Assembly (NCBI GenBank): GCA_017428495.1 | Contig: JAFRQS010000023.1 | Span: forward strand, 670 to 64,669 | Length of the DNA stretch: 64,000 nt | From: Bacilli bacterium | GTDB lineage: Bacteria; Bacillota_I; Bacilli_A; RF39; UBA660 | Reading direction: 5' to 3' | In this document: one piece after another, positions 4,586-31,429 of the stretch | How positions within the stretch are numbered: the stretch's first letter is position 1 | Layout of the letters: every line of letters starts with the position of its first letter | Translations under genes and position numbers: made by a program | The notes under the pieces: model-generated | What the model was told of the DNA's origin: nothing | What the model saw: only the letters and a program-made list of their open reading frames with translations | The model's database searches: none

Positions 4586-6100
4586 ATGAAAAAGTTTTTA
4601 ATAAGTGTAATGTTACTATTATTAGTTGTTACAGTACGTGCTGAAGAAAAAGTAAATTTAAAATTAGAGTGGATACCTAATATGTATTATAGTTATAAAA
4701 AGGATGGTATGACATATTGGGGTCAATTTGCATATGCCTATGTGGATGGTAAGATAGCATATTGTCTAGATATATACCATCCTATAACTAAGTATGAGTA
4801 TACATCGACAAGTGAAATTCAGGAAAATAATTTGGTTATATTAGCAGGATATTTTGGATATGGATATAATGGTGAATATTTACTAAAAGATTATGTCGCT
4901 ACACAAAAACTAATATGGGAATATTTGGGTATGAATGTAAAAATAACTGCTGAAAGTGAAGGAAAAGGTAGGGAAATAGATTTGTATGATAATACTTTAA
5001 AAATAATAGAAAGAATAAATAGATATGCACTATTTCCAAGATTTGATAGTGACTTTATATTTGATTTAAATACAACAAATCAGTTAAATGATTTAAATGA
5101 AATAAGTGATAATTTCGATATAATAAATGAGTCATATAATAATATATATTCTATAGATAATAATGTAATATTTGAAGCATATGAAGTTGGTACAAATGAT
5201 TTTTATTTAAAAACCAAATATGATATGAATCATTCTAATATTATATTTGTAGCACCAGATTCCCAAAAAATAATGATTATTGGTGAAGTAAATAACTTAA
5301 CACAAAGATATTCTTATGAGGTGGTTGATTCTGATGATGAAACTCCAATAATAGAAGAAAATCCAATAATAGAGGAAGACCCAGTAGTAGTGGAAGACCC
5401 AATAATAGAGGAAGACCCAGTAATAGAAGAAGACTCAGTAATAGAAGAAGACCCAATAATAGAGGAAGATCCAATAATAGAGGAAGACCCAGTAGTAGAA
5501 GAAGACCCAATAATAGAGGAAGATCCAATAATAGAGGAAGACCCAGTAGTAGAAGAAGACCCAATAATAGAAGAAGATCCAGTAATAGAAGAGGATCCAG
5601 TAATAGAAGAGGATCCAGTAATAGAAGAGGATCCAGTAATAGAAGAGGATCCAGTAGTAGAAGAATACCCGATAATAGAGGAAGATCCAATAATAGAGGA
5701 AGATCCAGTAATAGAGGAAGACCCAATAATAGAAGAAGATCCAATAATAGAAGAAGATCCAGTAATAGAAGAAGATCCAGTAATAGAAGAGGATCCAATA
5801 ATAGAAGAAGATCCAGTAATAGAAGAAGATCCAGTAATAGAAGAGGATCCAGTAATAGAAGAGGATCCAATAATAGAGGAAGATCCAGTAATAGAAGAAG
5901 ATCCAGTAATAGAAGAGGATCCAGTAATAGAGGAAGATCCAGTAATAAAGGAAGATCCAGTAATGGAAGAAGAGAGTGTAAATATTGAAAATAGTGTGAA
6001 AATTTCAGAAAAAATAGATAAGTTACCATTTTTAGGGGTATATTATGAAAAAAATCTTAATATTTGCATTTATTTTATTAAATTTAACTGGATGTACTAA
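4586..6100 (+). CDS. Cys-Gln thioester-domain (TED) surface adhesin with acidic repeat stalk and LPFLG sorting-like motif
   Basis: Signal peptide; AYCLD (Cys at 4763), ATQKLIW motif, candidate reactive Gln in DSQKIMIIG (5264); 35 EEDPVI-type repeats; C-terminal KLPFLG; adjacent sortase. Confidence 0.75.
   Translation: MKKFLISVMLLLLVVTVRAEEKVNLKLEWIPNMYYSYKKDGMTYWGQFAYAYVDGKIAYCLDIYHPITKYEYTSTSEIQENNLVILAGYFGYGYNGEYLLKDYVATQKLIWEYLGMNVKITAESEGKGREIDLYDNTLKIIERINRYALFPRFDSDFIFDLNTTNQLNDLNEISDNFDIINESYNNIYSIDNNVIFEAYEVGTNDFYLKTKYDMNHSNIIFVAPDSQKIMIIGEVNNLTQRYSYEVVDSDDETPIIEENPIIEEDPVVVEDPIIEEDPVIEEDSVIEEDPIIEEDPIIEEDPVVEEDPIIEEDPIIEEDPVVEEDPIIEEDPVIEEDPVIEEDPVIEEDPVIEEDPVVEEYPIIEEDPIIEEDPVIEEDPIIEEDPIIEEDPVIEEDPVIEEDPIIEEDPVIEEDPVIEEDPVIEEDPIIEEDPVIEEDPVIEEDPVIEEDPVIKEDPVMEEESVNIENSVKISEKIDKLPFLGVYYEKNLNICIYFIKFNWMY
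5336..5965 (+). repeat. Coding tandem repeat, 35 x 18 bp (EEDP[V/I][I/V])
   Basis: Units read directly, e.g. GAAGAGGATCCAGTAATA; 630 bp total from DETPII to KEDPVM. Confidence 0.97.
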
Positions 6101-6500
6101 TACTGATGTAAGAGATAATAGTCTTGTTATTGCTAAGATAGGTATTGATGAAAAATATAGTATAGTAAATTTGGATGATGATGTTAATGGTATAGTTATG
6201 TATAGTGAGTGTGGGAGACCAGATAAGGATGGATCTAATACAGTTATAGGTGCACATTCTGGAATAGGCAGTAATGCATTATTTAACAATATATCTAAAC
6301 TAGAAATAGGTGATTTAATAAGTTTAGTCTATAATAACTATGAATATACGTATGCGGTTATAGATGTTAAAGTAGTAAATGATAGTGATAGTTATATATT
6401 GGATGATACTGGTGAAAATTTGCTTACTTTAATTACGTGTAAGTTTGGCTATGTTGATAAAAGAATTGTTGTTATTTCTAAACTTACAATTGACTTATGA
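6045..6500 (+). CDS. Minimal sortase with lipoprotein signal peptide
   Basis: Catalytic GAHSG (His), LTLITC (Cys) and KRIVV (Arg); N-terminus MKKILIFAFILLNLTGC ends in a lipobox. Confidence 0.88.
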   Translation: MKKILIFAFILLNLTGCTNTDVRDNSLVIAKIGIDEKYSIVNLDDDVNGIVMYSECGRPDKDGSNTVIGAHSGIGSNALFNNISKLEIGDLISLVYNNYEYTYAVIDVKVVNDSDSYILDDTGENLLTLITCKFGYVDKRIVVISKLTIDL

Positions 6501-6518
6501 CACAATGTCAGTTATAAT
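6490..6518 (+). promoter_or_regulatory. Sigma-A promoter with embedded palindromic TetR operator
   Basis: TTGACT-N17-TATAAT, with TGACA-CAA-TGTCA (6498-6510) in the spacer, directly upstream of the TetR gene. Confidence 0.8.
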
Positions 6519-6535: not shown

Positions 6536-7135
6536 ATGGCTAAACAAACTTTTATTAATTTACCTGAAGAAAAGAAAAATAAAATAATTAAATCTTTGAA
6601 GAAAGAATTTAGCAGAGCGTCATTAAAAGATGCTTTAGTGTCTAATATAGTAAAAGAAGCTGGTATTCCAAGAGGCAGTTTTTATCAATATTTTGAGGAT
6701 ATTGAAGATTCATACTACTATGTAATAGAAGAATATTCTAATAACATTAAAAAGTTTTTAATTGAAGACTTAAGAAATAATAATGGAGATATAATTTTGG
6801 CTTATAGACATCTATATATATACATATTAGATATGATAGATAATAAAAATAATAAAGAATATTTTGAAAAGATATTTTTAAATATGAGTTATGAAGTTCA
6901 AAGTATGTTTACGCCTAATTTTAATGATGGACTTAACTTAATAATAAATTATGTTGATTGTTCAAAATTAAATATAGCATCTAAGTTTGGTTTAGGATAC
7001 GTCCTTGATATAATTGAATCTACAATGATGAATAGTATAATAAAAAGTTATAAGAGAAATTTAAGTAGAGAAAAAAATATAGAAATATTTGAAAAAGAAT
7101 TAGCACTTATATGTGTTGGTGTATTAAAAAAGTAA
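6536..7135 (+). CDS. TetR/AcrR family transcriptional regulator
   Basis: N-terminal HTH VSNIVKEAGIPRGSFYQYFED. Confidence 0.92.
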   Translation: MAKQTFINLPEEKKNKIIKSLKKEFSRASLKDALVSNIVKEAGIPRGSFYQYFEDIEDSYYYVIEEYSNNIKKFLIEDLRNNNGDIILAYRHLYIYILDMIDNKNNKEYFEKIFLNMSYEVQSMFTPNFNDGLNLIINYVDCSKLNIASKFGLGYVLDIIESTMMNSIIKSYKRNLSREKNIEIFEKELALICVGVLKK

Positions 7136-7193
7136 TTATTTACTTTTTTTCTTTTTAATGGTAATATAAAACTTGTTTTTGGGAGGGGATTTT

Positions 7194-7703
7194 ATGTTTG
7201 GATTTTCAAGTTTAAGATGCTCAGATTGTTCATGGATTGATCCTAGGGATAGAAATAGATATGGAGAATATTATTGTACTAAAGAAAGAGAATATGTATC
7301 TGGTGATGATTATACTTGTAGAGATTTTGAACCTAATTTTTATGTTATGACGGCATATTGTAAAATAAAAAAATTGCCATATAATTGCGATGAAATGATT
7401 TCTTTAATTGCTCTTAGAGACAAATATATGGTAGAAGATTTAAAAGGTAGACCATTTTTAGAAGAGTATGAAATTATTGGACCTATTCTTGCGGTTAGAT
7501 TACAAGCTGATATGTATAGAAGTGATATAGTAAGAAGTATGGAAGAAGACTATATACATCCTGCTATGGAAATGATGCTTATGGGAGATTTTGATGGTGC
7601 TCAAGAATCTTATATACAAATGGTTGAAATGTTAAAAATTAGGTATGGATATGCTCCAGCCAGAAAAACTGATAAGAATAAGAAAAAAGACTTTAAATTT
7701 TAA
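7194..7703 (+). CDS. Small protein with N-terminal Cys cluster and CFI-box-CTERM-like domain
   Basis: CSDC...YC...TC at the N-terminus; FYVMTAYC...NCDEMISLIALRDKYM...GRPFLEEYEIIGPILA resembles the CFI-box pattern; start ATG 7194 after GGGAGGGG. Confidence 0.55.
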   Translation: MFGFSSLRCSDCSWIDPRDRNRYGEYYCTKEREYVSGDDYTCRDFEPNFYVMTAYCKIKKLPYNCDEMISLIALRDKYMVEDLKGRPFLEEYEIIGPILAVRLQADMYRSDIVRSMEEDYIHPAMEMMLMGDFDGAQESYIQMVEMLKIRYGYAPARKTDKNKKKDFKF

Positions 7704-8235
7704 AGTCTTTTATATTTTTATCATACATATCTTTTCCATCAAAGTATTTTTTTTCTTCTAATTTCATAATAAGGGCAACTAATTTTGATGGATAAGTTGT
7801 TACTAATTTGTTATATAGCGTTGTGCTTTCATTGTAGTATTTTTCACCAGCTTTTATCTTTGTATTTGTGCTAGTTATTTCATACCACAAATCATTTATA
7901 GCTGTATTTTTTTGAATTTGATTGTTTTCATTTTTAATAGTATATATTTCTTTTTCTATATCAACAAGTTTTCTTTCAAATTCAAATGATGATAATTCTT
8001 CATCTTTTAGTTTATCTAAATCTTTAAAACTTTTATTATCTTTATCAATTTTTTTAATTTCTGCTATTATCTTTGTTATTAAATCATATTTAATTCTCAA
8101 TGATTCATCAATTTCACTTTCTGCAGTATTAATTTTTAGTATTTGTACTTTGATTTTATTATAAATAAAGCAAAATGCAAAAATTAATATAACTGATAAT
8201 ATTAATATAATTAATAATAATTTAATTAAGTCCAT
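7693..8235 (-). CDS. LemA family protein
   Basis: N-terminal TM; AESEIDESLRIKYDLI, YYNESTTLYNKLVTTYPSKLVA and KKYFD. Confidence 0.85.
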   Translation of the reverse strand: MDLIKLLLIILILSVILIFAFCFIYNKIKVQILKINTAESEIDESLRIKYDLITKIIAEIKKIDKDNKSFKDLDKLKDEELSSFEFERKLVDIEKEIYTIKNENNQIQKNTAINDLWYEITSTNTKIKAGEKYYNESTTLYNKLVTTYPSKLVALIMKLEEKKYFDGKDMYDKNIKDFKI

Positions 8236-8339
8236 GTTTACACCTTCTATTCATATAAATTATATCAAAATAAGTCTATATGTACAATAAATTATATGAA
8301 AGAAATTGATATATATGATATAATTGTAGTGGTGATATT

Positions 8340-8909
8340 ATGAAGATTAGTATTGGTATATCTGCAAGGCATGTTCATTTGTGCCAAAGAGATTTTGAAG
8401 CATTATTTGGTAAAGATGGTCATTTAACAAAATATGTAGATTTAAATCAACCTACTATGTTTGCTGCAAATGAAAAAGTAAGTATTATAACTGATGGTGG
8501 TAGGATTGATAATGTAAGAATAGTTGGGCCAATAAGACCTTATACTCAAGTTGAAATAAGTAAGACTGACTCATATAAGTTAAAATTAAATCCACCTGTT
8601 AGAGGATCTGGTGATTTAGATAATTCTGAGTCTGTTTATATAGAATATAATGGCAATAGGATATTTGCAAAAAATTCTTGTATAATTGCTAATAGACATA
8701 TTCATATTAGAACTTGTGATTTGGATAAATATGGTTTTAAAGATAATCAAATAGTTAAATTAAAAGTAAATAGTATTAAAGGCGGTACATTAGATAATGT
8801 GTTTATAAAGGCTACAGATGAGGCTTATTTTGAGGCTCATTTAGATTTAGATGACGCGAATGCTAATTTTATTAATGATGGAGATATTGGGGAAATAATT
8901 AGTGAATGA
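8340..8909 (+). CDS. pduL: PduL-type phosphate propanoyl/acetyltransferase
   Basis: GISARHVHL, QVEISKTD, IIANRHIHI and AHLDLDDANA. Confidence 0.92.
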   Translation: MKISIGISARHVHLCQRDFEALFGKDGHLTKYVDLNQPTMFAANEKVSIITDGGRIDNVRIVGPIRPYTQVEISKTDSYKLKLNPPVRGSGDLDNSESVYIEYNGNRIFAKNSCIIANRHIHIRTCDLDKYGFKDNQIVKLKVNSIKGGTLDNVFIKATDEAYFEAHLDLDDANANFINDGDIGEIISE

Positions 8910-9117
8910 GTTTAAAGTATGTAATAAATGTAAAGGATTTAATTTTCATGAACTTATTGCTAAATTAAAGAATATTGATGAATCTGCTAAAATAATAATT
9001 GGATGTCAAAGTATGTGTGCTGTTGGTGCTAAAAAACCTTTCGTAATAGTTAATGGTATACCAATTGTAGGTGATAATATAGATTTGTTAATTGATAAAA
9101 TTAAAGAAGTTATATAA
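8902..9117 (+). CDS. DUF1450 (YuzB-like) small Cys protein
   Basis: FKVCNKC...IIGCQSMCAVGAKKPFVIVNG. Confidence 0.8.
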   Translation: MNEFKVCNKCKGFNFHELIAKLKNIDESAKIIIGCQSMCAVGAKKPFVIVNGIPIVGDNIDLLIDKIKEVI

Positions 9118-9144
9118 TTTCTTTTTTTATAGGAAGTGATAAAA

Positions 9145-10113
9145 ATGAAATGGAAAATAGGTAGTGTAGAAATAAAAAATCAAGTAGTACTTGCACCTAT
9201 GGCAGGTATTTGTAATAGTGCTTTTAGAAGAATAATAAAAGAGATGGGTGCTGGTCTTATATATGCTGAGATGGTTAGTGATAAGGCAATAGTATATGAA
9301 AATAAAAAGACTACTGATATGCTATATATGACTGATTATGAAAGACCTATAAGTCAACAAATATTTGGTAGTGATATTACATCATTTGTAGAATCTGCAA
9401 GAATAGTATATGAAAAGATGAAACCTGATATTATAGATATAAATATGGGATGCCCTGTACCTAAAGTGGCAGTAGGCGCTCAGGCTGGAGCAGCATTATT
9501 AAAAAATCCAGAAAAAATATATGAGATAGTAAGTGCAGTAGTGAAAACAGTTCCTGTTCCAGTAACTGTTAAAATTAGAAGTGGATGGGATAAAGATCAT
9601 ATTAATGCTGTAGAAGTTGCACGTGTTTGTGAAAAAGCTGGTGCAAGTGCAATATGTGTACACCCAAGGACTAGAAATCAAAGATATGAAGGGTTATCTG
9701 ATTGGAATATTATAAAAGAAGTTAAAAGTAATGTAAGTATTCCTGTAATAGGTAACGGAGATATAAAAAGTATTTATGATGCTAAAAGAATGCTAGATGA
9801 AACAGGTTGTGATGCTGTTATGATAGGTAGAGCAGCATTGGGAAATCCCTGGTTAATAAAAGACATAGTGGAATATTTAGAAAATGGTAATGAATGTAAT
9901 GCTATTACAAAAGATGAAAAAATAGATATGTGTATTAAACATATGAATTATTTATTAGAATTTAAACCTGAGAAAACAGCAATACTCGAAATGAGAAGTC
10001 ATATTGCTTGGTATTTGAAAGGTTTAAATGGTTCGAATGATGTAAAAAGAGAAATATTTAAATCTACTACTAAAAAAGAAGTATTAGAAATATTGGAAAA
10101 ATTTAGATATTAA
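9145..10113 (+). CDS. dusB: tRNA-dihydrouridine synthase DusB
   Basis: LAPMAG, IDINMGCPVPKV, IGNGDI and VMIGRAALGNPW. Confidence 0.96.
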   Translation: MKWKIGSVEIKNQVVLAPMAGICNSAFRRIIKEMGAGLIYAEMVSDKAIVYENKKTTDMLYMTDYERPISQQIFGSDITSFVESARIVYEKMKPDIIDINMGCPVPKVAVGAQAGAALLKNPEKIYEIVSAVVKTVPVPVTVKIRSGWDKDHINAVEVARVCEKAGASAICVHPRTRNQRYEGLSDWNIIKEVKSNVSIPVIGNGDIKSIYDAKRMLDETGCDAVMIGRAALGNPWLIKDIVEYLENGNECNAITKDEKIDMCIKHMNYLLEFKPEKTAILEMRSHIAWYLKGLNGSNDVKREIFKSTTKKEVLEILEKFRY

Positions 10114-13058: not shown

Positions 13059-13120
13059 TATTAATAATATGTATATTGTTTAAAATTGTAAAAAGTTATA
13101 TAATTATAATAGGTGATAGT

Positions 13121-14473
13121 ATGAATAAAAGAGGTTTTACTTTAGTAGAAGTTATAGTTAGCTTTGTTCTTATTACGGCAGTTTCATTAGCATTATTTAA
13201 AACTACATTGTCTATTCAAGAAAAACAAAAAGAGAATTTAGCAATAAATTCATTTAAAGCATTTAATCTAGCAATTAATAATGAGATACAATATGATTTT
13301 TTAACTGATAAAATATTATCTACAACTCCATGTGGAGATAGTTGTTATGATATTGTATTTGAGAATAGAGGAACCGTTAGGACAACTTTAAATAAAGAGG
13401 ATGGTATAATAACATATGGAAGTTTCAAGGAAAAATTGCCAAGTGAGTATAAGTTTTATGATGATATGCTAATTACCAGTTATTCATCAGATAATGAAGG
13501 TCTAAATTCATATGTAGTAATGACTATACCTGTAAAGAGTAATTATGAGCCAAATTTGAGTAATATAAAATATATGTATCAGTATGATAAGAATAATCCA
13601 AATGCATTGGTTGATTTAAATTTACCAAATGCAAGTGATATATTTGCATCTAAAGTAGGTGAATGTGGATTATATAGAGATGATCACGGTGATTTGAGAT
13701 ATCAAGGATCAAATCCATGTAATTATGTAACATTTAATGATGAAACATGGAGGATAGTAGGGATATTTACTGTTGATGGGGATAAAAGAATAAAGATTGT
13801 TAGAGAAGAGTCATTGGGCAGTTATTCATGGGATTCAAGTGATTCTACTATAAATGGTGGCGATGGAATAAATCAATGGGGACCATCTGGAACATATGTT
13901 GGTGCAGACTTAATGTTGGAATTGAATGGTGACTATTTGAATTCTTCATTATCCGCAAATACAAATTGGTATAATGGTGAAGATGGACAGCAGGATGCAG
14001 TATTTAATAAAGATTATGTTTTAAAGCAAGATTCAAAAAAATTAATAGCTGATACAACATGGCATTTAGGTGCGTTTACTGGGACCGCAATTAATTCATT
14101 AGCCTCAGTATATTTAGCAGAAAGAGGAGTGGATCATTTTGCAAATCCGACTGATGGTGTAGAAAGAACAAATACATGGAAAGGTAAAGTTGGATTGATC
14201 TATCCATCTGATTTTGGATATGCTTCAGCAAATTATTCATGCAAGGACAATATTAATTCGACTGGTATTTGTGATAATAATTGGATGTCTAATTATGGTT
14301 GGACTATTACTACTACCGCATCCACTGTGAAACATGGTTGGTATTCGGTTGCTCAGAATAATACTGGTTCCAAGATGGCGGTTGCACATCCAGTACATCC
14401 ATCAGTATACTTAAAATCAATTGTTAAAGTTGCTGGAGAAGGTACAACTGATAATCCATATATATTTAGTTAA
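13121..14473 (+). CDS. Prepilin-type N-terminal cleavage/methylation protein with large C-terminal extracellular (DUF6273-like) domain
   Basis: MNKRG/FTLVEVIVSFVLI class III signal; C-terminal NYVTFNDETWRIVG, KVGLIYPSDFGYA and GEGTTDNPY motifs. Confidence 0.8.
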   Translation: MNKRGFTLVEVIVSFVLITAVSLALFKTTLSIQEKQKENLAINSFKAFNLAINNEIQYDFLTDKILSTTPCGDSCYDIVFENRGTVRTTLNKEDGIITYGSFKEKLPSEYKFYDDMLITSYSSDNEGLNSYVVMTIPVKSNYEPNLSNIKYMYQYDKNNPNALVDLNLPNASDIFASKVGECGLYRDDHGDLRYQGSNPCNYVTFNDETWRIVGIFTVDGDKRIKIVREESLGSYSWDSSDSTINGGDGINQWGPSGTYVGADLMLELNGDYLNSSLSANTNWYNGEDGQQDAVFNKDYVLKQDSKKLIADTTWHLGAFTGTAINSLASVYLAERGVDHFANPTDGVERTNTWKGKVGLIYPSDFGYASANYSCKDNINSTGICDNNWMSNYGWTITTTASTVKHGWYSVAQNNTGSKMAVAHPVHPSVYLKSIVKVAGEGTTDNPYIFS

Positions 14474-21472: not shown

Positions 21473-22038
21473 AGAATTTTATCTATGATACCGTAAGATA
21501 ATGCTTCATCACTAGTCATGAAGTAATCTCTTTCGGTATCTTTTTCTATTTCTTCTATTTTTTTACTTGTATTTTTTGATAATATTTTATTCATTCTATT
21601 TCTAATTCTAAGTATTCTTTCTGCTGCAATTTTTATTTCAGTAGCTTGTCCTTCTGCACCTCCTAATGGTTGGTGGATCATCACTTCACTATTATTTAGT
21701 GCATATCGTTTACCTTTTTTTCCACTCGATAATAAGAATGCAGCCATAGAAGCAGCCATTCCTATACATATTGTACTTACATCACTTTTAATATAATTCA
21801 TTGTATCATATATAGCCATACCAGATGTTATAGATCCACCATTTGAATTTATATATATACATATATCATCATTATTTATTGAATCTAAATATAGCAATTC
21901 TGCAACAACTATATTTGCTAATTCATCATTTATTTCTCCTGATATAAATATAATCCTATCTTCTAATATTTTTGAATATAAATCATACACTCTTTCACTA
22001 TTATTTTTTTTCTCTATAACAGTAGGAATTAAATTCAT
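21469..22038 (-). CDS. clpP: ATP-dependent Clp protease proteolytic subunit
   Basis: YINSNGG, GMAASMA (Ser), MIHQPLGG (His) and ERDYFM. Confidence 0.97.
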
Positions 22039-22141
22039 AATATCACCTATAATTATAATAGGTATAAAGTTAAGTAAATATACACTATTATATGTGACAA
22101 AGTTTTTACTTATATGATATACTTATAGTAGGAGTGATAAT

Positions 22142-23770
22142 ATGGACAAAGTAAAAGTGTATTATAATAATAAGTTCTATGAGTATCCTAAAGGTATTAA
22201 ATTACTAGATGTTGCAAAAGATTTTCAAAAGGATTTTAAATATCCAATATTAGTAGGTATAGTTAATGAATACTCTGTAACTTTAGATTTTGAAATAAGA
22301 GAAGATTCAAAGGTAAAGTTTTATGATATATCATCATCTAAAGGTTTTAGAGCATATGAGAGAACAGCAATTCTTGTTTTAGTAAAAGCAGTGAGGGATA
22401 TATTGAATAAAGAAGTAAAAGTTGAACATTCTATAGATAGAGGCATATATTGCACAATAGATGGATTAAAAAAAGAAGATATTGATAATATTTCCAAAGA
22501 AATGCATGAACTAGTTGAAAGGGCTATTCCTATTGAAAAATTAAGCGTAAATAGATTAAAAGTAATTGAATATTTTAAAAAAATACATGATGATAATGCA
22601 AGTGTATTTAAGTACATGAGTAAGAATAATGTAACTTTATATAAAATAGATGGTATGTATGATTATATATTTGGTAAAGTATGTGTTAATACATCATATT
22701 TAAATAATTTTAAACTTGAATATATTGGTAATAATGGTTTTGTACTTATGCTACCATTTATATATGATAATATGAGAGTAAATGATTATACGCATCATGA
22801 AAAGTTTTTTAATTCAGTATTAGATTATATAAATTGGACTGATAAGATTGGTATTAAGTCATTTGTTGATTTAAATTTAAAAATATCTGAAGGCAAATGG
22901 AATGATATGGTATTTATGAGTGAAGCATCATATAATAAGTCATTACTTGATATAGTTGAAAAAATAGATGATAAAATTAAATTAATTTTAATAGCTGGTC
23001 CATCATCTTCTGGTAAAACTACAACTGCAAATAAATTGAAATTATTTTTAAGTGGAAGAGGATATAAACCGGTAATGCTATCGACTGATGACTATTTTAA
23101 GGAAAGAGATGAAACACCACTTGATGAGAATGGTAATAAAGATTATGAATCGGTAAATGCAATTGATATTGATTTATTTAATAAGCAATTGAAAGATTTA
23201 ATAGATGGTAAAGAGGTTACTATACCAACATTTAATTTTATAACTGGAAAAAAAGAATATAAGAAGAAATTACAATTGGATAAAGATGGAATATTAGTAA
23301 TAGAAGGTTTACATACATTAAATGATGTATTAACCGAATCTATTGAAAGAGATAAGAAATATAAAATTTATATTTCACCACTTACTGGTTTAAATGTGGA
23401 TGATCACAATAGATTAAATAGTACAGATAGTAGATTGCTTAGAAGGATGGTAAGAGATAATTTAACAAGAGGATATAATGCAAGTCATACGCTTTCAACA
23501 TGGGATAGTGTAAGAGCAGGGGAAACAAAGTATGTGTTCCCATATCAAGATGAAGCAGATATTGTTCTTAATACATCTTTGATATATGAATTGTGTGTAT
23601 TAAAAGTTTATGCAGAGCCATTACTATTCTCTGTTGATGAACTAGATCCATATTATAGTGAAGCAATTAGATTGATAGGTATATTGAAATTAATACTACC
23701 TATGCCAAGTGAAGGAATACCGCTTGATTCATTGCTAAGAGAGTTTATTGGTGGAAGTTGTTTTGAATAG
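22142..23770 (+). CDS. Nucleoside (uridine) kinase with N-terminal TGS/ThrRS-like domain
   Basis: [23 protein letters not shown] and LRRMVRD. Confidence 0.88.
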
Positions 23771-23778
23771 GAGGAAAT

Positions 23779-24780
23779 ATGATAAAAGTAGCAATTAATG
23801 GATTTGGAAGAATAGGAAGATTATGTTTTAGAGAAACATTTGGTACAAAAGAATTTGAAATAGTAGCAATAAATGATTTGACAGATGCTCATACATTGGC
23901 GCATTTGTTAAAATATGATTCTGCACAAAAAAGGTATGAAGGACATACAATAACTTATGATGATAATCATTTAATAGTTGATGGCAAAGCAATAAGAATA
24001 TATGCTGAGAAAGATCCTGTAAATTTACCTTGGAAGGAACTAGATGTTGACGTTGTATTTGAATGTACAGGATTCTTTACTAATAAAGATGATGCAATGT
24101 CACATATTAAAGCTGGCGCTAAGAAAGTTATTATTTCAGCACCTGCTAAGGGTGATGTTAAAACAATTGTATATGGGGTTAATGAAAATATATTAGATGG
24201 TAGTGAAGAAATTATTTCAGCTGCTTCTTGTACAACAAATTGTTTGGCACCACTTGCTAAGGTTATGAATGATAACTTTAAAATTAAATATGGTACTATG
24301 ACTACAATACATGCATATACAAATGATCAAAATACATTAGATGCACCTCATAGAAAGGGTGATTTAAGAAGGGCAAGAGCAGCAGCTGAGAATATTGTAC
24401 CTAATAGTACAGGCGCAGCTAAAGCTATTGGGCTTGTTATTCCAGAATTAGAAGGTAGATTAGATGGAAGTGCTCAAAGAGTACCAGTTGCGACGGGATC
24501 ATTAGTTGAGCTTACTTGTGTACTTGATAAAAAAGTTACAAAAGAAGAAATTAATGAAGTAATGAAGAATAATGCAAATGATACATTGGGGTATACAGAA
24601 GATGAAATAGTATCTAGTGATGTTATAGGTATTAGGTGGGGTTCATTATTTGATGCCACTCAAACAAAGGTAATATCTACTCCTGATGGTGATATGGTTA
24701 AAGTAGTTGCGTGGTATGATAATGAAATGAGTTATACTTGTCAGATGGTAAGAACTGCTAAATATTTAATGAATAGGTAA
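23779..24780 (+). CDS. gap: Type I glyceraldehyde-3-phosphate dehydrogenase
   Basis: [19 protein letters not shown] and WYDNE. Confidence 0.99.
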
Positions 24781-24804
24781 ATAAGTGCTAAGCACTTATT
24801 TTTC
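24781..24804 (+). terminator. Terminator separating gap from the pilin-pgk unit
   Basis: ATAAGTGC-TAA-GCACTTAT followed by Ts. Confidence 0.75.
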
Positions 24805-24854
24805 TTTGATTGTTTTATTCTACTATATGTGTTAAAATTATATTGGTGATGTAG

Positions 24855-25223
24855 ATGAAAAAAGGGTTTACTTTAATTGAAGTGACTGTTGTGATACTTT
24901 TGTTAGGAGTATTATCAATTTTTATAATTCCTAAGGTAACAACTACTATTGGTAATAATAAAGCTAAAGCTTGCGCAAGTATAGTGACAAGTGCGGAGGA
25001 AGCAGCAAAAGCGTATACTTATATGCATATAGAAACTATTGAAGAAGATATTGTATCTAATGGTTATTTTGATATTACAATAGGGGAATTACAAGATGAA
25101 GGTTTATTAAAAATGAATATAGAAAATCCATATGAAGAAGGTTATATTTCAACTTCTAATAATGTAAGAGTTACAAAAAATGGAAATAAATATATATACA
25201 CATATATGGGTGGTGAATGTTAA
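24855..25223 (+). CDS. Small type IV pilin/ComG-like prepilin
   Basis: MKKG/FTLIEVTVVILLLGVL class III signal; 122 aa; two Cys. Confidence 0.88.
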   Translation: MKKGFTLIEVTVVILLLGVLSIFIIPKVTTTIGNNKAKACASIVTSAEEAAKAYTYMHIETIEEDIVSNGYFDITIGELQDEGLLKMNIENPYEEGYISTSNNVRVTKNGNKYIYTYMGGEC

Positions 25224-26407
25224 TGAAAAAAAATATTACTGATTTTAAATTAAAAAATCAGAGAGTAATTGTTAGATGTGATTTGAATGTACCAATAAAG
25301 GATGGCGTTATTTTAGATGATACACGTATAAAAGCCTGTCTAGAAACTATAGAACATTTAGTTAGTGCTAAGGCTAAAGTAATTATTTTATCTCATTTGG
25401 GTCGAGTAAAAGAAGAAAAAGATAAGGAAACCAATTCATTAAGACCGGTAGCTGATAAATTAAGTGAATTAATTGGTAGGCCTGTAAAGTTTGTACCATA
25501 TACTAGAGGTATGGAGGTAGAAAATGCTATAAATTCTATGGAACCTAGAGATATAGTTATGCTTGAAAATACTAGATTTGAAGATTTAAATGGTAATAAA
25601 GAAAGCGGAAATGATAGTGAACTTGCACATTATTGGGCTTCATTAGGAGATATATTTATTAATGATGCATTTGGGACTATACATAGGGCACATGCTTCTA
25701 ATGTTGGAATTGCAAAATTATTACCAAGTGGTATTGGTTTTTTAGTAAAAAATGAAATAGAAAAAATATCAAGTGCGCTAAATAATCCAGAAAGACCACT
25801 AGTTATAATGCTTGGTGGTGCTAAGGTGAGTGATAAGATTGGCGTTATTAATAATGCTGTAAAAATAGCTGATTATGTATTAATAGGTGGGGGGATGCCA
25901 TATACTTTTTATAAGGCTTTAGGATATAATGTTGGGTTATCAATTGTAGATGATAGTAGTTTGGAATTTTGTAGAAATATTTATTCTCAATATAAAAATA
26001 AAATCCTTCTTCCAGAGGATATTGTAGTTGCGTCTTCAATATCAGAAGGCGCATCTACAAGAATTACAACATATGCTGATATTGGAAGCAATGAAGTTGG
26101 TATAGATATTGGTATGGCTACAATAAGTAGATATAAATCAATACTTATGAATGCCAATACAATAATATGGAATGGTCCTATCGGAATGTTTGAAATAGCA
26201 AAATTCTCTCAAGGAACTAGGAAAGTAGTAGAAATTTTATCAAGTTCTAAAGCAAAAATAGTAGTTGGTGGCGGAGATACAATATCTGCATTAAATAAAT
26301 TTGGATTTAATAATAAAAGGGCACATATATCAACAGGTGGTGGAGCTACTTTAGAAATGCTTGAAGGTAAGGAATTGCCTGGATTAAGTGCAATAAGTGA
26401 TAAATAA
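25223..26407 (+). CDS. pgk: Phosphoglycerate kinase
   Basis: RCDLNVP, LSHLGR, LENTRF, FINDAFG and STGGGATLE; ATG overlaps the pilin stop (TAATG). Confidence 0.98.
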   Translation: MKKNITDFKLKNQRVIVRCDLNVPIKDGVILDDTRIKACLETIEHLVSAKAKVIILSHLGRVKEEKDKETNSLRPVADKLSELIGRPVKFVPYTRGMEVENAINSMEPRDIVMLENTRFEDLNGNKESGNDSELAHYWASLGDIFINDAFGTIHRAHASNVGIAKLLPSGIGFLVKNEIEKISSALNNPERPLVIMLGGAKVSDKIGVINNAVKIADYVLIGGGMPYTFYKALGYNVGLSIVDDSSLEFCRNIYSQYKNKILLPEDIVVASSISEGASTRITTYADIGSNEVGIDIGMATISRYKSILMNANTIIWNGPIGMFEIAKFSQGTRKVVEILSSSKAKIVVGGGDTISALNKFGFNNKRAHISTGGGATLEMLEGKELPGLSAISDK

Positions 26408-27402
26408 TGAAATTTAAAAGAAATATATTATTAATAATTTTTGTTGGTATTATAGTATTATTTTTTGCACTAAAAGATGATTTTGATGAAATAATGAATT
26501 TGTTATTAAATTCTAATAAGTTATATATAATAATATCTTTAATTTTTGTATTTATATCAGATGTGTTTAAGAGCATATCATTAAAGAAAATAGTAGTAAA
26601 TTCGGGATATAGTTTCAGCTTTAAAAAAGCTCTTTCTTTGATGATAACTGCAAACTTTTTTAATGGTATCACACCATTTTCATTAGGAGGGCAACCATTC
26701 GAATTATTTGTATTAAAAAAAGAAGATAATATAGGATATGTAGATGGTACAAATATACTATTTAAAGATTTTTATACATATCAAATGGCTTTCATATTAT
26801 TAGGCGCAATATGCTATATCTGTAGTTCTTTGTTTAACATGGTAGTATATTCTCCAATAGTTATAAGGATTATAAGATTAGGTTTGATTATAAATTTGTG
26901 CGTCGCATTGTTCCTAATATATATACCACATTCTAGAAAAGGAAATTACAAAATAGTTTCTTTTATATTAAATATATTGAATAAGTTTAAAATTATTAAA
27001 GATAAAGAAAGTATTGAAGAGAAAATTAATAATTCAATTATAAAATTTAAAAAACAAACACGTGAAACAATTAATAGTCCGAAAGTAATTATAAAATGTA
27101 TAATTTTAAATTGCCTTAAAATTATATGTATAGGAATTGCTACATATTATTGTTTTAAAGCTATTGGATCAAATATTAGTATTATTGATACAATAGTTAT
27201 GACTATATTAGTAATGATTATGTCATCATTTGTACCTATACCAGGTGCAAGTGGTGGTATGGAGTTTTCTTTTGTAGCATTATTTTCATACTTTGTTATA
27301 GATGCTAAATTAAGCGCTATAATGTTGTTGTGGAGGTTTTTAACATATTATGTGCCAATGATATTTGGTGGTCTTACTTTCTTGACGTTAAAGGGGGAAT
27401 AA
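26407..27402 (+). CDS. UPF0104 / lysylphosphatidylglycerol synthase TM-domain (flippase-like) protein
   Basis: FFNGITPFSLGGQP, FVPIPGASGGME and LWRFLTYY. Confidence 0.9.
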   Translation: MKFKRNILLIIFVGIIVLFFALKDDFDEIMNLLLNSNKLYIIISLIFVFISDVFKSISLKKIVVNSGYSFSFKKALSLMITANFFNGITPFSLGGQPFELFVLKKEDNIGYVDGTNILFKDFYTYQMAFILLGAICYICSSLFNMVVYSPIVIRIIRLGLIINLCVALFLIYIPHSRKGNYKIVSFILNILNKFKIIKDKESIEEKINNSIIKFKKQTRETINSPKVIIKCIILNCLKIICIGIATYYCFKAIGSNISIIDTIVMTILVMIMSSFVPIPGASGGMEFSFVALFSYFVIDAKLSAIMLLWRFLTYYVPMIFGGLTFLTLKGE

Positions 27403-27404
27403 CA

Positions 27405-28616
27405 ATGCGTATAGGAATTTTTACTGAAGTGTATAAGCCATATGTAAGTGGGGTTGTAACAAGTATACTTATGCTAAAAAAATCATTAGAAGATCTAGGA
27501 CATACAGTATATGTTGTTACAATAAATATGGATAAGATGAAATATGAATATGATGATAAAGAAAAGGTTTTAAAGGTTCCTGGAATTGAATCTGGTATTT
27601 ATGATCATTTTAAAGTTAGCAGCATTTATCCAATTAAATCAACTCGAATTATAAAAAAATGGAAATTAGATATAATACATACTCATACTGAAGGAAGTAT
27701 GGGATTATATGGTAGATTATTAGCAAAGCAATTTAATATACCTATAGTACATACATATCATACTATGTATGAAGATTATATGTATTTGGTAACTAAAGGA
27801 CATTTTGATAAACCTGCAAAAAGATTATTAGAGTACTTTACAATGTTTTATTGTGATAAAACAGTATCTGAACTTATAGTACCTACTAAAAAGACATATG
27901 ATTTATTTAAGATAAAATATGAAATGCAAAGAGAAGTAAATATAATTCCCACGGGAATAGATACTGATAGATTTAAAAAGAGTAATTTTGACAAAAAGGA
28001 AATTATAGAACTTAGAAATAAGCTTGGAATATCTAAGGATGATTTTGTCTTGTTATTAGTTAGTAGAATATCTGAAGAACAAAAAAATATAAAATTTTTA
28101 ATAGATTGTCAAAATAATTTAAATAAGAAATATAAAAACATAAAATTTTTGATTGTTGGAGATGGCCCAGATTTAGAATATTTTAAAAAGTTAACTGCTA
28201 AAGATGACTCTATTATATATACTGGTATGGTACCATGGAATGAAGTTGCTAAGTATTATCAAATTGGTGATGTATTTGTAACTGCTTCAAAAACTGAAAC
28301 ACAAGGATTAACAGTTATTGAAGGAATGGCTGCATCATTGCCAGTAGTATGTATGAATGATGATAGTTTTAAGATAGCAGTTATAGAAGATTATAATGGA
28401 TTGTTTTTTAAAACAAAGAGGGAATATATTAAAGCAATATCAACGTTACATGATGATTATGATAAATATATAACTATGTCAAAACAGGCTCTTTCCTCTG
28501 CGTCTCAGTTTTCTGTTAAATTTTATGGTCAGAAAATACTAGAAGTATATAAAAAGGCTATTGATAGTAAAAAAGAATCATTGATTAGTAAATTAAAAAA
28601 AGTTGTGAGAAAATAA
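27405..28616 (+). CDS. GT4 glycosyltransferase (monoglucosyl-diacylglycerol synthase-like)
   Basis: MRIGIFTEVYKPYVSGVVTS, HTYHTMYEDY, VGDGP and ETQGLTVIEGMA. Confidence 0.92.
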   Translation: MRIGIFTEVYKPYVSGVVTSILMLKKSLEDLGHTVYVVTINMDKMKYEYDDKEKVLKVPGIESGIYDHFKVSSIYPIKSTRIIKKWKLDIIHTHTEGSMGLYGRLLAKQFNIPIVHTYHTMYEDYMYLVTKGHFDKPAKRLLEYFTMFYCDKTVSELIVPTKKTYDLFKIKYEMQREVNIIPTGIDTDRFKKSNFDKKEIIELRNKLGISKDDFVLLLVSRISEEQKNIKFLIDCQNNLNKKYKNIKFLIVGDGPDLEYFKKLTAKDDSIIYTGMVPWNEVAKYYQIGDVFVTASKTETQGLTVIEGMAASLPVVCMNDDSFKIAVIEDYNGLFFKTKREYIKAISTLHDDYDKYITMSKQALSSASQFSVKFYGQKILEVYKKAIDSKKESLISKLKKVVRK

Positions 28617-28617
28617 A

Positions 28618-28657
28618 TGCAAATAATGTGTAAATTTACACGTTGTTTGCGTTTTTT
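28618..28657 (+). terminator. Long hairpin terminator
   Basis: GCAAATAATGTGTAAA/TTTACACGTTGTTTGC inverted repeat followed by GTTTTTT. Confidence 0.7.
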
Positions 28658-28721
28658 CTATTTTATTCTACAAATATGTGTGATATATTAAGATTGTAAA
28701 AGGTAGAAAGGCTGTGATAAA

Positions 28722-29042
28722 ATGAATTCAACTAAAATTTTATTTCTAAAAATGCTTAGAAGTGATATTAAGAGATCCACATATGCCAAAATGGGGATTA
28801 GTTCTGATGCTTCAAGTAGTGAAGAATTGTTAGCTGGGCAAACAATTGGTAGGAATGAGATAGAAGGCTTTTCGTCTTTTAAATTGATGAATGCTGAAGA
28901 ACGGAGTGTTGTTAATTCAATATTAAATAGCTTTAGGAGAGACTCTTCTAGCAATGAAAAAGGAAGGGCTTTGCTAAAACATATTGATTCTTTAGTGCCA
29001 AAAGATGAATCTTATGAAGCTGAATATAAAGACGCGGCATAG
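28722..29042 (+). CDS. Hypothetical protein (106 aa)
   Basis: Isolated ORF bounded by terminators; weak SD; no recognisable motif. Confidence 0.6.
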   Translation: MNSTKILFLKMLRSDIKRSTYAKMGISSDASSSEELLAGQTIGRNEIEGFSSFKLMNAEERSVVNSILNSFRRDSSSNEKGRALLKHIDSLVPKDESYEAEYKDAA

Positions 29043-29059
29043 AAAATATATCTTTTAAA

Positions 29060-29088
29060 TGTAGTACAAAAATGTACTACATTTTTTT
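29060..29088 (+). terminator. Rho-independent terminator
   Basis: TGTAGTACA-AAAA-TGTACTACA followed by Ts. Confidence 0.75.
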
Positions 29089-29089
29089 A

Positions 29090-29096
29090 ATCGACA
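29090..29096. promoter_or_regulatory. Possible Spo0A box upstream of spo0A
   Basis: ATCGACA is a 6/7 match to TTCGACA (reverse complement of TGTCGAA), about 50 nt upstream of the start. Confidence 0.35.
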
Positions 29097-29145
29097 AAAT
29101 TAGATATCAATAATAATTATATTAATAATGTAAATAGGAGGAAAC

Positions 29146-29910
29146 ATGAAAACAAGAATATTAATGATTGATGATAATATAAATTTAGTTGAGATGATTG
29201 GAGAATATTTTAAGGATAATAAATATATAGAAATGAGTTTAAAGGCTAATTCTGGTGAAGAAGGAATAAAATTAATTGAGGAAAGAAAAGATGATTATGA
29301 TGTAATTATTTTAGATTTGATAATGCCCAATAAAGATGGTATTTATGTATTAGAAGAAATGAAGAAAAAGAGTATAGATAAACCAGTAATAATATCTACT
29401 TCATATAATAGTGATGATATGATTAGAAGAGTGTCTGAATATGGAGTACAGTATTTTTTGTTAAAACCATATGAATTATCAGATTTAGAAAATAGAATAT
29501 TGGAACTTTGTAATTCGGATTTTAAAGAAAGTAAAAATATAAATTTATATCATAATAATTTACAAATATCTATTACAAAAATATTACATGAATTAGGAGT
29601 TCCTTCCCATATCAAAGGATATCAATATATTAGAGAAGGAATAACGCTTTTGTATAGCAATCCAGATATGATTGGTGGTATAACTAAAGAATTGTATCCA
29701 GAAATAGCATTAAAGTTTAGTACTACTGTTTCAAGAGTAGAAAGAGCTATAAGACATGCTATAGAAGTTAGCTGGAATAGAGGTGATTGGGATTTGATGG
29801 ATGAAATATTTGGACATAGTGTAGATATAGATAAAGCAAAACCAACTAATTCAGAATTTATAGTAACAGTTGCAGATAAACTTAGACTAGATAGAGCAAA
29901 AACTAATTAA
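29146..29910 (+). CDS. spo0A: Sporulation master regulator Spo0A
   Basis: Receiver domain LDLIMP; C-terminal [26 protein letters not shown] and KPTNSEFI. Confidence 0.98.
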
Positions 29911-29952
29911 AAATTAGTTTTTTTGTGTTATTATAAATATAGGAGTGGTAAT

Positions 29953-30636
29953 ATGATAAAATTAGTTTTAGTAAGACATGGTGAATCAATATGGAATCTA
30001 GAAAATAGATTTACTGGATGGACAGATGTTGATTTATCAGAAAATGGTGTAAGTGAAGCTATAGAAGCTGGTAAAATATTAAAAGAGAAAGGGTATACTT
30101 TTGATATTGCTTTTACTAGCGTACTAAAAAGAGCAAATAGAACTTTAGATATAATTTTAGATGAGTTAGGATTGAAAATTCCTATTGAATATAGTTATAA
30201 ATTGAATGAAAGACATTACGGAGCTTTACAGGGATTAAATAAAGAAGAAACTAGAAAAAAATATGGTGAGGAGCAAGTACATCTTTGGAGGAGAAGTGTA
30301 AATGTTAGACCTCCTGCATTAACTATTGATGATCCAAGATATCCATTAAATGATCCTAAATATAAAGATGTAGATAGAAAAAACATACCATTAACTGAAA
30401 ATTTATTGGATACTATAGAAAGAGTAGTGCCTTATTATAAGAGTGCAATAGAACCAAAATTAAGAGATAATAATGTAATTGTAGTAGCGCATGGTAATAG
30501 TTTAAGAGCTTTAATCAAATATATAGATAATTTAACTGATGAAGAAGTTATGGCTTTAGAAATACAAACTGGTAATCCAATTGTATATGAATTTGATGAT
30601 AATCTAAAGCCAATAAATCATTATTACCTAAAATAA
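29953..30636 (+). CDS. gpmA: 2,3-BPG-dependent phosphoglycerate mutase
   Basis: [18 protein letters not shown] and AHGNSLR. Confidence 0.97.
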
Positions 30637-30637
30637 T

Positions 30638-31429
30638 ATGGATGAAGAAGTTAAATATTTGAAAACAGCTCTTAGAATTATAGATTGTAAACATGTAAGT
30701 AGTTATATAAATGATAATGAGATATTAATTAGATTTACATATAAAAATAGAAATTATATACTACATATAAATAATGATTATGGACTAGTCACAATAGAAC
30801 AAATTGAATCTGCTAATATTGGAAGTGTGGGATATGATGAAATCGCATTATTGAATGATATTAGAGAGATATTACCATATACTGAATTTGAAGGATATAA
30901 TGTGTATGCAATATCATATTTTAATTCTTTAGGTTACGTAGGAAATAAACCTGTTACAATAAAAAAGATGGAAATAAGTATAGATACTGGTAATGAAGAT
31001 ATTGCAGTATATAGAGCAATAATAAAACCTACTAAAGAAGTGGAAGGGGAATTTGTAGATTATTTTGGCGGATTATATGAATTTGATAGTAGGATATTTG
31101 AGGATGATTGGTTAGAAGATTTTAATGAAAAAGTAGATACATATTCTGAAGAGGATTTATTTATAATAATTTCTACAATTGCGTCATATCCATACAAATT
31201 ATTAACTAATTCATGGAAAGGCAAAAAAATAGATCCGTTTGTGCTTTCATATGTTAGTGAGCAAGCAATAAATGAAGCACAAAAGTATATTAATTTATAT
31301 CCTGTTAATGAAGGTGAAGATAAATTTGAAGGCTGGTATCATATGTGGGAATTATATTTTACTGATAAGACATTAGAAGATTATTTGAATAAAAGAGGCG
31401 GTAATCAGAAGAAAAAAGAGTTTAGTTAA
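30638..31429 (+). CDS. Hypothetical acidic protein (263 aa)
   Basis: ORF starts 1 nt after the gpmA stop and ends at a terminator; no family recognised. Confidence 0.7.
   Translation: MDEEVKYLKTALRIIDCKHVSSYINDNEILIRFTYKNRNYILHINNDYGLVTIEQIESANIGSVGYDEIALLNDIREILPYTEFEGYNVYAISYFNSLGYVGNKPVTIKKMEISIDTGNEDIAVYRAIIKPTKEVEGEFVDYFGGLYEFDSRIFEDDWLEDFNEKVDTYSEEDLFIIISTIASYPYKLLTNSWKGKKIDPFVLSYVSEQAINEAQKYINLYPVNEGEDKFEGWYHMWELYFTDKTLEDYLNKRGGNQKKKEFS

Follow-up and report, generated by a model that had tools for sequence, protein, structure and literature searches.

What does a type IV prepilin gene do between the genes of two glycolytic enzymes, and what keeps it there? The question is raised by a 64,000-nucleotide (nt) stretch of DNA (the window; positions 670 to 64,669 of the forward strand of contig JAFRQS010000023.1) from assembly GCA_017428495.1 of an uncultured Bacilli bacterium, a 1.235 Mb assembly of 26% GC that is 93% complete and is designated G000 below. 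The glycolytic genes of Firmicutes are canonically arranged as (cggR-)gap-pgk-tpiA-pgm-eno, with gap expressed differently from the genes downstream of it, as in Bacillus subtilis; type IV pilin genes normally stand alone or in pil loci and are tightly regulated. In the window a gene for a small prepilin lies between gap and pgk, and pgk is followed by genes for a UPF0104 membrane protein and a family 4 glycosyltransferase (GT4). We consider it probable that the prepilin gene, equipped with its own promoter and Shine-Dalgarno (SD) sequence, heads a four-gene unit and that the site directly upstream of pgk serves as an expression slot. The parts are ordinary, i.e. a type IV pilin, phosphoglycerate kinase (PGK) and a GT4 together with an MprF-like flippase; what is new is their arrangement, which is conserved and specific across dozens of genera. 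A literature search for a linkage of pilin and pgk found nothing relevant.

The features of the locus are collected in Table 1. A first-pass annotation of the window had listed a terminator after gap, a promoter-like stretch, a prepilin, overlapping stop and start codons and a closing hairpin, and every one of these is present where it was placed. The gap stop codon falls within the 5' arm of the terminator-like hairpin; in the close relative L283 a C:G pair of its stem is replaced by U:A, a compensatory change. The last base of the pilin stop TAA (25221-25223) is at once the first of the pgk ATG (25223-25225), giving TAATG, and the pgk stop TAA (26405-26407) overlaps the UPF0104 ATG (26407) in the same way. 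GT4 had been said to begin 3 nt after UPF0104, which is essentially correct, 2 nt intervening between the UPF0104 end (27402) and the GT4 ATG (27405). G000 contains a single match to pgk, which is therefore the sole copy. A scan of positions 22000-31000 against Rfam gave nothing above chance, i.e. no known leader or riboswitch. The locus resembles the canonical Firmicute operon in the succession of gap, pgk and, in relatives, tpiA, and in the stem-loop after gap. It differs in the pilin between gap and pgk, in the UPF0104-GT4 pair between pgk and tpiA, in a predicted pgk promoter placed before the pilin, and in the apparent absence of tpiA from G000. Two envelope modules, the pilin on the one hand and a putative glycolipid synthase with its flippase on the other, occupy both junctions of gap-pgk-tpiA.

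Table 1. Genes and putative signals at the pilin-pgk locus and related features of the window (positions are those of the window).
Feature	Position	Strand	Detail
Example prepilin-type gene in the window	13076-14473	+	
udk-like gene	22142-23770	+	542 aa; 8 nt upstream of gap
gap (glyceraldehyde-3-phosphate dehydrogenase)	23779-24780	+	Pfam Gp_dh_N E 3e-38, Gp_dh_C E 4e-60; last gene of udk-like-gap unit
Intrinsic-terminator-like hairpin after gap	24779-24801	+	10-bp stem, U-run, -11.5 kcal/mol, z -3.8
Putative promoter of pilin-pgk unit	24810-24838	+	-35 TTGTTT (24810-24815), N17, extended -10 TG-T-TAAAAT (24830-24838)
Promoter stretch		+	TGTTAAAAT; part of promoter region of pilin-pgk unit
Pilin SD	24845-24850	+	GGTGAT; GGTGA invariant, 9 loci
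Type IV prepilin	24855-25223	+	122 aa; PF07963 and TIGR02532 above cut-offs
pgk's own SD	25212-25216	+	GGTGA; within last pilin codons (G-G-E-C), 6 nt before ATG
pgk (phosphoglycerate kinase)	25223-26407	+	394 aa; Pfam PGK E 1e-138, full-length match
UPF0104 / MprF-flippase-like (PplT) membrane protein	26407-27402	+	331 aa; PF03706, TIGR00374
GT4 glycosyltransferase	27405-28616	+	Glyco_transf_4 + Glycos_transf_1; NF049988
Closing intrinsic terminator	28615-28654	+	18-bp stem, -20.7 kcal/mol, z -6.6; at site of tpiA in relatives
orf106	28722-29042	+	106 aa; own terminator 29057-29084; between operon terminator and spo0A

Promoter-like hexamer pairs occur in DNA of 26% GC at chance frequency (80 found against 76.8 expected), and support for the promoter therefore comes from conservation and not from a match to a motif; accordingly it was judged by phylogenetic footprinting of nine orthologous loci in place of a consensus scan. 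In their alignment the extended -10 element TGnTAnnAT and the SD GGTGA are the sole upstream invariants. The region further upstream is unalignable because the upstream neighbour varies between species of the genus, being gap, an extra open reading frame (ORF) of 128 or 149 aa, a 790-aa modular pilin, or unrelated genes. Promoter, SD and stop/start overlap are kept at pgk divergences down to ~50% identity. This pattern supports the pilin as the probable head of a pilin-pgk-UPF0104-GT4 unit with a promoter of its own, as the first-pass annotation had proposed. The same annotation held that an internal pgk promoter would count against it, and a column-wise scan of the nine loci gave no sequence-level sign of one: no further position-conserved promoter-like element was found, and a conserved pgk promoter inside the pilin ORF was rejected, the best candidate being present in only 3 of the 9 sequences.

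The overlap at the junction between pilin and pgk is conserved in three forms. The overlap reads TAATG in G000 and L283, ATGA in G001, G002, G005-G008, L285 and G014, and TTGA in G003. In 9/9 loci an SD for pgk, G[GA]TGA or, in G001, AGGAGG, stands 6-10 nt ahead of the pgk start. The GGTGA of this SD arises from Gly-Gly/Asp-Glu codons in the tail of the pilin; in G001, where that tail has been lost, AGGAGG takes its place. Since pgk keeps its own conserved SD, translational coupling is possible and not compulsory. Among the marks of a coupled pair a conserved overlap is found here; absence of an independent downstream SD is not. Thus, of the earlier proposal that pgk is translationally tied to the pilin, the conserved overlap stands and an obligatory dependence does not. 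The further suggestion that this tie may enforce retention of the pilus is weakened by sister genera that have gap-pgk and no pilin.

The sequence of events that we favour would be as follows. The gap terminator would halt most udk-like-gap transcripts, and the sole pgk would be transcribed mainly from the pilin promoter, on one mRNA that would also carry the pilin gene, UPF0104, GT4 and, in relatives, tpiA. The pilin promoter would be of the sigma-A type, and the pilus subunit would be made constitutively alongside a core glycolytic enzyme. The SD within the final pilin codons would recruit ribosomes to pgk, and ribosomes that have reached the overlapping pilin stop could re-initiate. The site directly upstream of pgk would then be a long-lived expression slot for one pilin, whose C-terminal part would be exchangeable: a bare pilin in G000, and Laminin_G_3, DUF6273 or other modules in relatives. 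After cleavage by PilD the pilin would be built into a type IV filament or would prime one. UPF0104 and GT4 would act separately from the pilin: a lipid of glucosyl-diacylglycerol type would be synthesised at the inner leaflet and then flipped outward. Were this so, the locus would be a natural case in which a surface gene that is not essential is tied to one that is.

Is the arrangement peculiar to this genome? The first-pass annotation would have been contradicted by an insertion unique to G000, and this is excluded, the arrangement being genus-wide and widespread in the family. The genus set comprises nine species (G000-G008), to which the independent metagenome contigs L283, L284 and L285 were added. 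Pilin orthologues occur in all 8 other species, with 37-68% identity, and the pilin is directly before pgk in 8/9 species (G000, G001-G003, G005-G008). G004 is compatible with the same order: shortly after gap one contig breaks off within an extended form of the pilin, and another contig begins with pgk. L283, L284 and L285 show the same order as G000. At the G001 locus (L161, G001:C63) a second prepilin, of the 790-aa modular kind, lies between gap and the small pilin (6997-9375), and the pgk frame is split in two pieces (5417-6518) by a frameshift or an assembly error.

In a wider survey pgk was searched in 150 genomes, each from a different genus of the family; ~6 kb around pgk was retrieved for 120 of these in addition to 18 retrieved earlier, the upstream side of pgk being readable in 135 loci and the downstream gene order in 145. 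A same-strand prepilin directly precedes pgk in 35/135 readable loci, 7 from the genus and 28/128 from other genera. The pilin stop lies -17 to +4 nt from the pgk start in 31/35 carriers, usually with an SD between. In the pgk tree the carriers concentrate in one clade of 39 genera (25/35 readable loci) and in the focal genus. The pilins of the 39-genus clade have a conserved promoter of their own, TTGAAT-N17-TATAAAAT, followed by AGGTGA. As a control, the region upstream of eno held a prepilin in 0/34 genomes of that clade. gap lies within 2.3 kb upstream in only 17/35 pilin-pgk pairs, and the stable unit is therefore pilin-pgk and not gap-pilin-pgk.

The spacer between gap and pgk is in general a hot spot of insertion (L146 of G012, L156 of G022, L158 of G024, L154 of G020, L014 of G003 and L162 of G007), and according to genus it contains unrelated ORFs of 128, 149, 265, 291 and 776 aa, a helix-turn-helix gene, or a GT4 on the opposite strand. 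The lineage is genus-rich (>160 genera sampled) and uncultured, from gut and rumen, the public relatives of G000 being labelled as uncultured Bacilli or Tenericutes metagenome-assembled genomes of that origin, and its pilins are hugely expanded (~34 in 1.2 Mb). The prepilin-type genes of G000 number 33-34, many of them of 270-680 aa, and in most of them a TGnTATAAT promoter precedes an SD of the form TAGGAG or TAGGTGAT. Many stand 47-170 nt upstream of same-strand housekeeping genes, namely clpC (in the window), murC, hrcA, nfo, priA, polC and rpsF; the pgk-linked pilin is the sole one that overlaps its housekeeping neighbour.

These surroundings give weight to a neutral account, in which a mobile pilin cassette was inserted by chance and has been kept without benefit, since genes that overlap and depend on one promoter do not come apart easily. 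The abundance of prepilin genes, most with a promoter cassette of their own and many just upstream of housekeeping genes, speaks for it, as do the unrelated inserts that the gap-pgk spacer hosts elsewhere and the failure of the approximately unbiased (AU) test to reject a single origin. Against synteny inertia stand the specificity for pgk in the 39-genus clade in comparison with eno, the persistence of the pairing without gap as a neighbour in roughly half of its occurrences, the retention of promoter, SD and overlap over the pgk divergences given above, and the singular overlap with pgk where the other G000 pilins keep their distance. On balance such inertia remains a serious minority possibility.

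A number of observations weigh against the favoured reading, a pilin-headed unit with a slot upstream of pgk, and some of them suit inertia equally. In the pgk tree the five nearest sister genera have gap-pgk and no pilin, and the arrangement is therefore dispensable; that sister genera live without it is also what inertia would allow. The distribution of pilin-pgk over the pgk tree needs at least 14 changes, and in the pilin-domain tree the sister group of the genus pilins consists of pilins from the sister genera G023 and G015 that are not linked to pgk. The prepilins of relatives were called by a rule of motif and hydrophobicity and not by a hidden Markov model (HMM). The predicted 5' untranslated region is ~10 nt long and begins at the SD, a layout that recurs at other G000 pilin genes and, in a sister genus, at pgk. 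Since pgk has an SD of its own, coupling may play no functional part. That the genes are co-transcribed, how strong the gap terminator is and where transcription starts are matters that we infer from the DNA. Finally, the head domain of the pilin, whose model is described below, gave no structural match in Foldseek.

Whether the association arose once or several times bears on the same balance. Nineteen pilins of the 39-genus clade form one group in the pilin-domain tree, and monophyly of the pgk-linked pilins as a whole was not rejected in the AU test (p 0.51 and 0.55). When pgk-linked pilins of the 39-genus clade were searched by tblastn against G000, several paralogues were matched about equally.

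Is the 122-aa product a pilin? Its N-terminus, MKKG/FTLIEVTVVILLLGVLSIFIIP, contains the cleavage motif MKKG/FTLIE (the slash marking the cleavage site) with G-1, F+1 and E+5, and like type IVa pilins it has G14 and P22. The N_methyl family PF07963 scores 24.0 bits (cut-off 21.2) and TIGR02532 26.8 bits (cut-off 16.3). F+1 and E+5 are invariant in 11 orthologues, and position -1 is G except in G008, where it is A. Class III signal peptides tolerate Ala at -1 as a minority state; Ala in this position (KKA/FTLVE) was seen in the pgk-linked pilins of L019 (G008), L169, L170, L178, L187, L190 and L255. A cysteine pair, C40 and the C-terminal C122, is conserved in 7/9 species. The AlphaFold2 model (pLDDT, the predicted local distance difference test score, of 89) shows a small beta head on an extended alpha1 helix, with helix at 7-57 and 59-69 and strands at 72-75, 103-109 and 112-117. 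The orthologue profile matches the alpha1 of GspG and of type IV pilins solved in the PDB, among them PilE1 of S. sanguinis, PilA of several species and MshA. In its sequence the protein lacks nothing that a prepilin-peptidase substrate should have, and its cleavage and incorporation into a filament are predicted.

The ratio of nonsynonymous to synonymous substitution (dN/dS) of the pilin is 0.23, against relatives at 86% and 64% identity, in comparison with 0.06-0.09 for pgk and 0.03-0.08 for GT4. By these rates the pilin is constrained yet fast-evolving, as expected for an exposed protein; a search for homologous proteins returned 6 close relatives, the family being narrow and fast-evolving. 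A non-coding or decaying ORF was ruled out by the intact frame in all species, the dN/dS and the conserved motif and cysteine pair.

G000 encodes machinery that could use such a substrate: PilD (A24_N_bact and Peptidase_A24), PilB (T2SSE, 424 bits) and a long PilC with two T2SSF domains, together with a CpaF-like ATPase and ComEC, the PilB, PilC and PilD genes being scattered across the genome. The presence of ComEC, a single PilB-type ATPase without a clear PilT, and the small size of the protein leave room for another identity, that of a ComGC-like major subunit of a DNA-uptake pseudopilus, made constitutively with glycolysis for scavenging of DNA. ComGC (NF040999) is indeed the best named NCBIfam match of the pilin (E 8.6e-10), at 38.7 bits and thus below the cut-off of 75, and the match is mostly to the generic alpha1 helix; GspG (TIGR01710) scores 33.1 bits against a cut-off of 88.85 and covers residues 3-55 only. 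The likeness to the ComGC and GspG pseudopilins therefore lies in small size and a similar N-terminal helix, while the context of a comG or gsp operon is missing: there is no comG-type operon and no adjacent comGA or comGB. Since the beta-sheet head of the model and the lectin-like modules borne by the equivalents of this pilin in relatives, typical of adhesive modular pilins, also speak against a pseudopilin, we regard this identity as unlikely.

These equivalents bear on the nature of the slot. Of the pgk-linked pilins, 21 are of ~112-146 aa and 14 of 182-545 aa. Among the six large ones that were scanned, three carry Laminin_G_3 (a concanavalin A (ConA)-like lectin domain), one carries DUF6273 and two have an unrecognised C-terminal part. 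By domain content these large variants fit what Raynaud et al. (PMC8179133) call modular pilins. In Streptococcus sanguinis, PilB and PilC are such modular pilins and PilE1/PilE2 are the major pilins (PMC8179133; PDB 8pfb). With the S. sanguinis pilins the G000 protein shares a class III signal peptide, a hydrophobic tract of ~21 residues, a long alpha1 and a small beta head, and the relatives share with the modular ones the grafting of a lectin-like or other module, here at the slot, and machinery of the PilB/PilC/PilD type. Unlike the S. sanguinis pilins, the gene lies outside a pil locus, within a glycolytic operon and overlapping pgk, with the machinery genes scattered, and its head is without a detectable sequence or Foldseek match to solved pilins.

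A pgk-linked pilin that is made constitutively would be the first candidate for the main or priming subunit of the filament, and for antibodies and metaproteomic markers. The lectin-bearing versions in the same slot, the existence of a distinct 141-aa pilin whose N-terminus is common to the 18 modular paralogues, and the sister genera without the pairing argue against a simple major pilin. A broader idea, that in this large family of genome-reduced gut Bacilli the pgk-upstream site is a dedicated pilin site, long kept or repeatedly re-used, and that with the glycolipid genes added the glycolytic operon acts as a constitutive surface-display operon, is put forward only tentatively and we lean against it. 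If it were true, silencing of the pilin promoter would be counter-selected through PGK, and C-terminal cargo would be swapped in place.

Could the pairing instead reflect a functional link between PGK itself and the pilus? PGK is a moonlighting surface protein in other Gram-positive bacteria, and it might be displayed on the surface or the pilus as an adhesin, or serve the assembly ATPase as a local source of ATP, co-translation fixing the ratio of the two products. The specificity and persistence of the pilin-pgk pairing are the only points in its favour. PGK here is without an added domain and has the N-terminus of a usual cytoplasmic enzyme to all appearance, the pilin head is free to vary and bears different modules, and sister genera do without the pairing, so that this link seems scarcely credible. 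The slot upstream of pgk remains our preferred explanation.

What, finally, do the two genes downstream of pgk contribute? UPF0104 matches PF03706 with 147.7 bits (cut-off 33.4) over residues 10-321 and TIGR00374 with 118.6 (cut-off 43.2), and has no further domain; its score against the glucosaminyl-phosphatidylglycerol (GlcN-PG) flippase NF053789, 65.2 bits, is below the cut-off of 320. The best of 33 families for GT4 is the alpha-monoglucosyldiacylglycerol synthase NF049988 (E 6.6e-90, 302 bits against a cut-off of 400), to which it aligns end to end (protein 1-396, model 1-398 of 398). Stand-alone PplT/YbhN proteins adjoin lipid synthases (bioRxiv 10.1101/2022.03.11.483950), and operons that combine a glycosyltransferase with a flippase for lipids include HexSDF of C. 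difficile (PMC10128005) and the GlcN-PG genes of P. aeruginosa (PMC12713373). The pair in G000 is like these in that a GT4 adjoins a stand-alone MprF-flippase-like (PF03706) protein, and GT4 is like the Acholeplasma-type alpha-monoglucosyldiacylglycerol (alpha-MGlcDAG) synthase in its end-to-end alignment. It is unlike these known systems in having no deacetylase, in sitting in a glycolytic operon and in scoring below the equivalog cut-offs. Because of the GT4 family match, the flippase-like match of UPF0104 and the known lipid operons of a glycosyltransferase and a flippase, lipid glycosylation is favoured: synthesis and flipping of a glycolipid is most likely the best reading, with a product of glucosyl-diacylglycerol type predicted. 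The guess of an MGlcDAG-type lipid in the first-pass annotation is consistent with the best family match of GT4, itself below cut-off.

The same annotation had suggested as another possibility that the pair glycosylates the pilin, so that the four genes would form one module of pilin modification. The shared operon and a raw association would fit, GT4 being downstream in 29/35 pilin-bearing loci against 47/100 pilin-less ones. Once phylogeny is considered, this association leaves only 3 supported independent contrasts, too few for significance. The pair occurs in many genomes without a pilin, including other families of the order, where it likewise lies between pgk and tpiA, and UPF0104-GT4 is absent from 6/35 loci that have the pilin. 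UPF0104-GT4 is thus independent of the pilin, and pilin glycosylation is without support. The nearest relative of GT4 is a diacylglycerol glucosyltransferase, and the unit contains no oligosaccharyltransferase of the PilO, PglL or TfpW kind. UPF0104 is missing and GT4 directly follows pgk at L036 (G002), L039 (G006) and 13 family loci; G002 and G006 keep the pilin, which again speaks against pilin modification, and the flippase-like gene is therefore dispensable at these loci or encoded elsewhere. Taken together, glycosylation of the pilin by this pair is very improbable, and a lipid product is the reading that we retain.

Among the 145 loci read downstream, the order is pgk-tpi in 46, pgk-UPF0104-GT4-tpi in 49 and pgk-GT4-tpi in 13, while 22/145 show pgk-UPF0104-GT4 with the end not reached or tpiA absent. 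By this gene order UPF0104-GT4 is a separate insertion between pgk and tpiA.

tpiA follows GT4 or pgk in most of the family, and lies right after GT4 in 7 other species of the genus. The G000 assembly gave no match to PF00121 and none in tblastn with congeneric TpiA; tpiA is likewise absent at the locus in L283, L284 and L285, and there was no match in G003 (66% complete). tpiA appears to have been lost from G000, where the spacer 28617-28721 holds the closing terminator and is followed by orf106. This apparent loss in the focal species is a separate metabolic lead.

On the upstream side, the 542-aa udk-like protein has a C-terminal uridine-kinase/PRK domain, and its N-terminal part weakly resembles the N-terminus of threonyl-tRNA synthetase (ThrRS); udk-like-gap synteny was seen across the family. 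On the downstream side, orf106 has no Pfam or NCBIfam match. It holds the same position across the genus with a dN/dS of 0.11-0.21, is 42-51% identical to its counterparts in G001 and G007 and 91% identical to that in L283, and may be a small regulator linked to spo0A.

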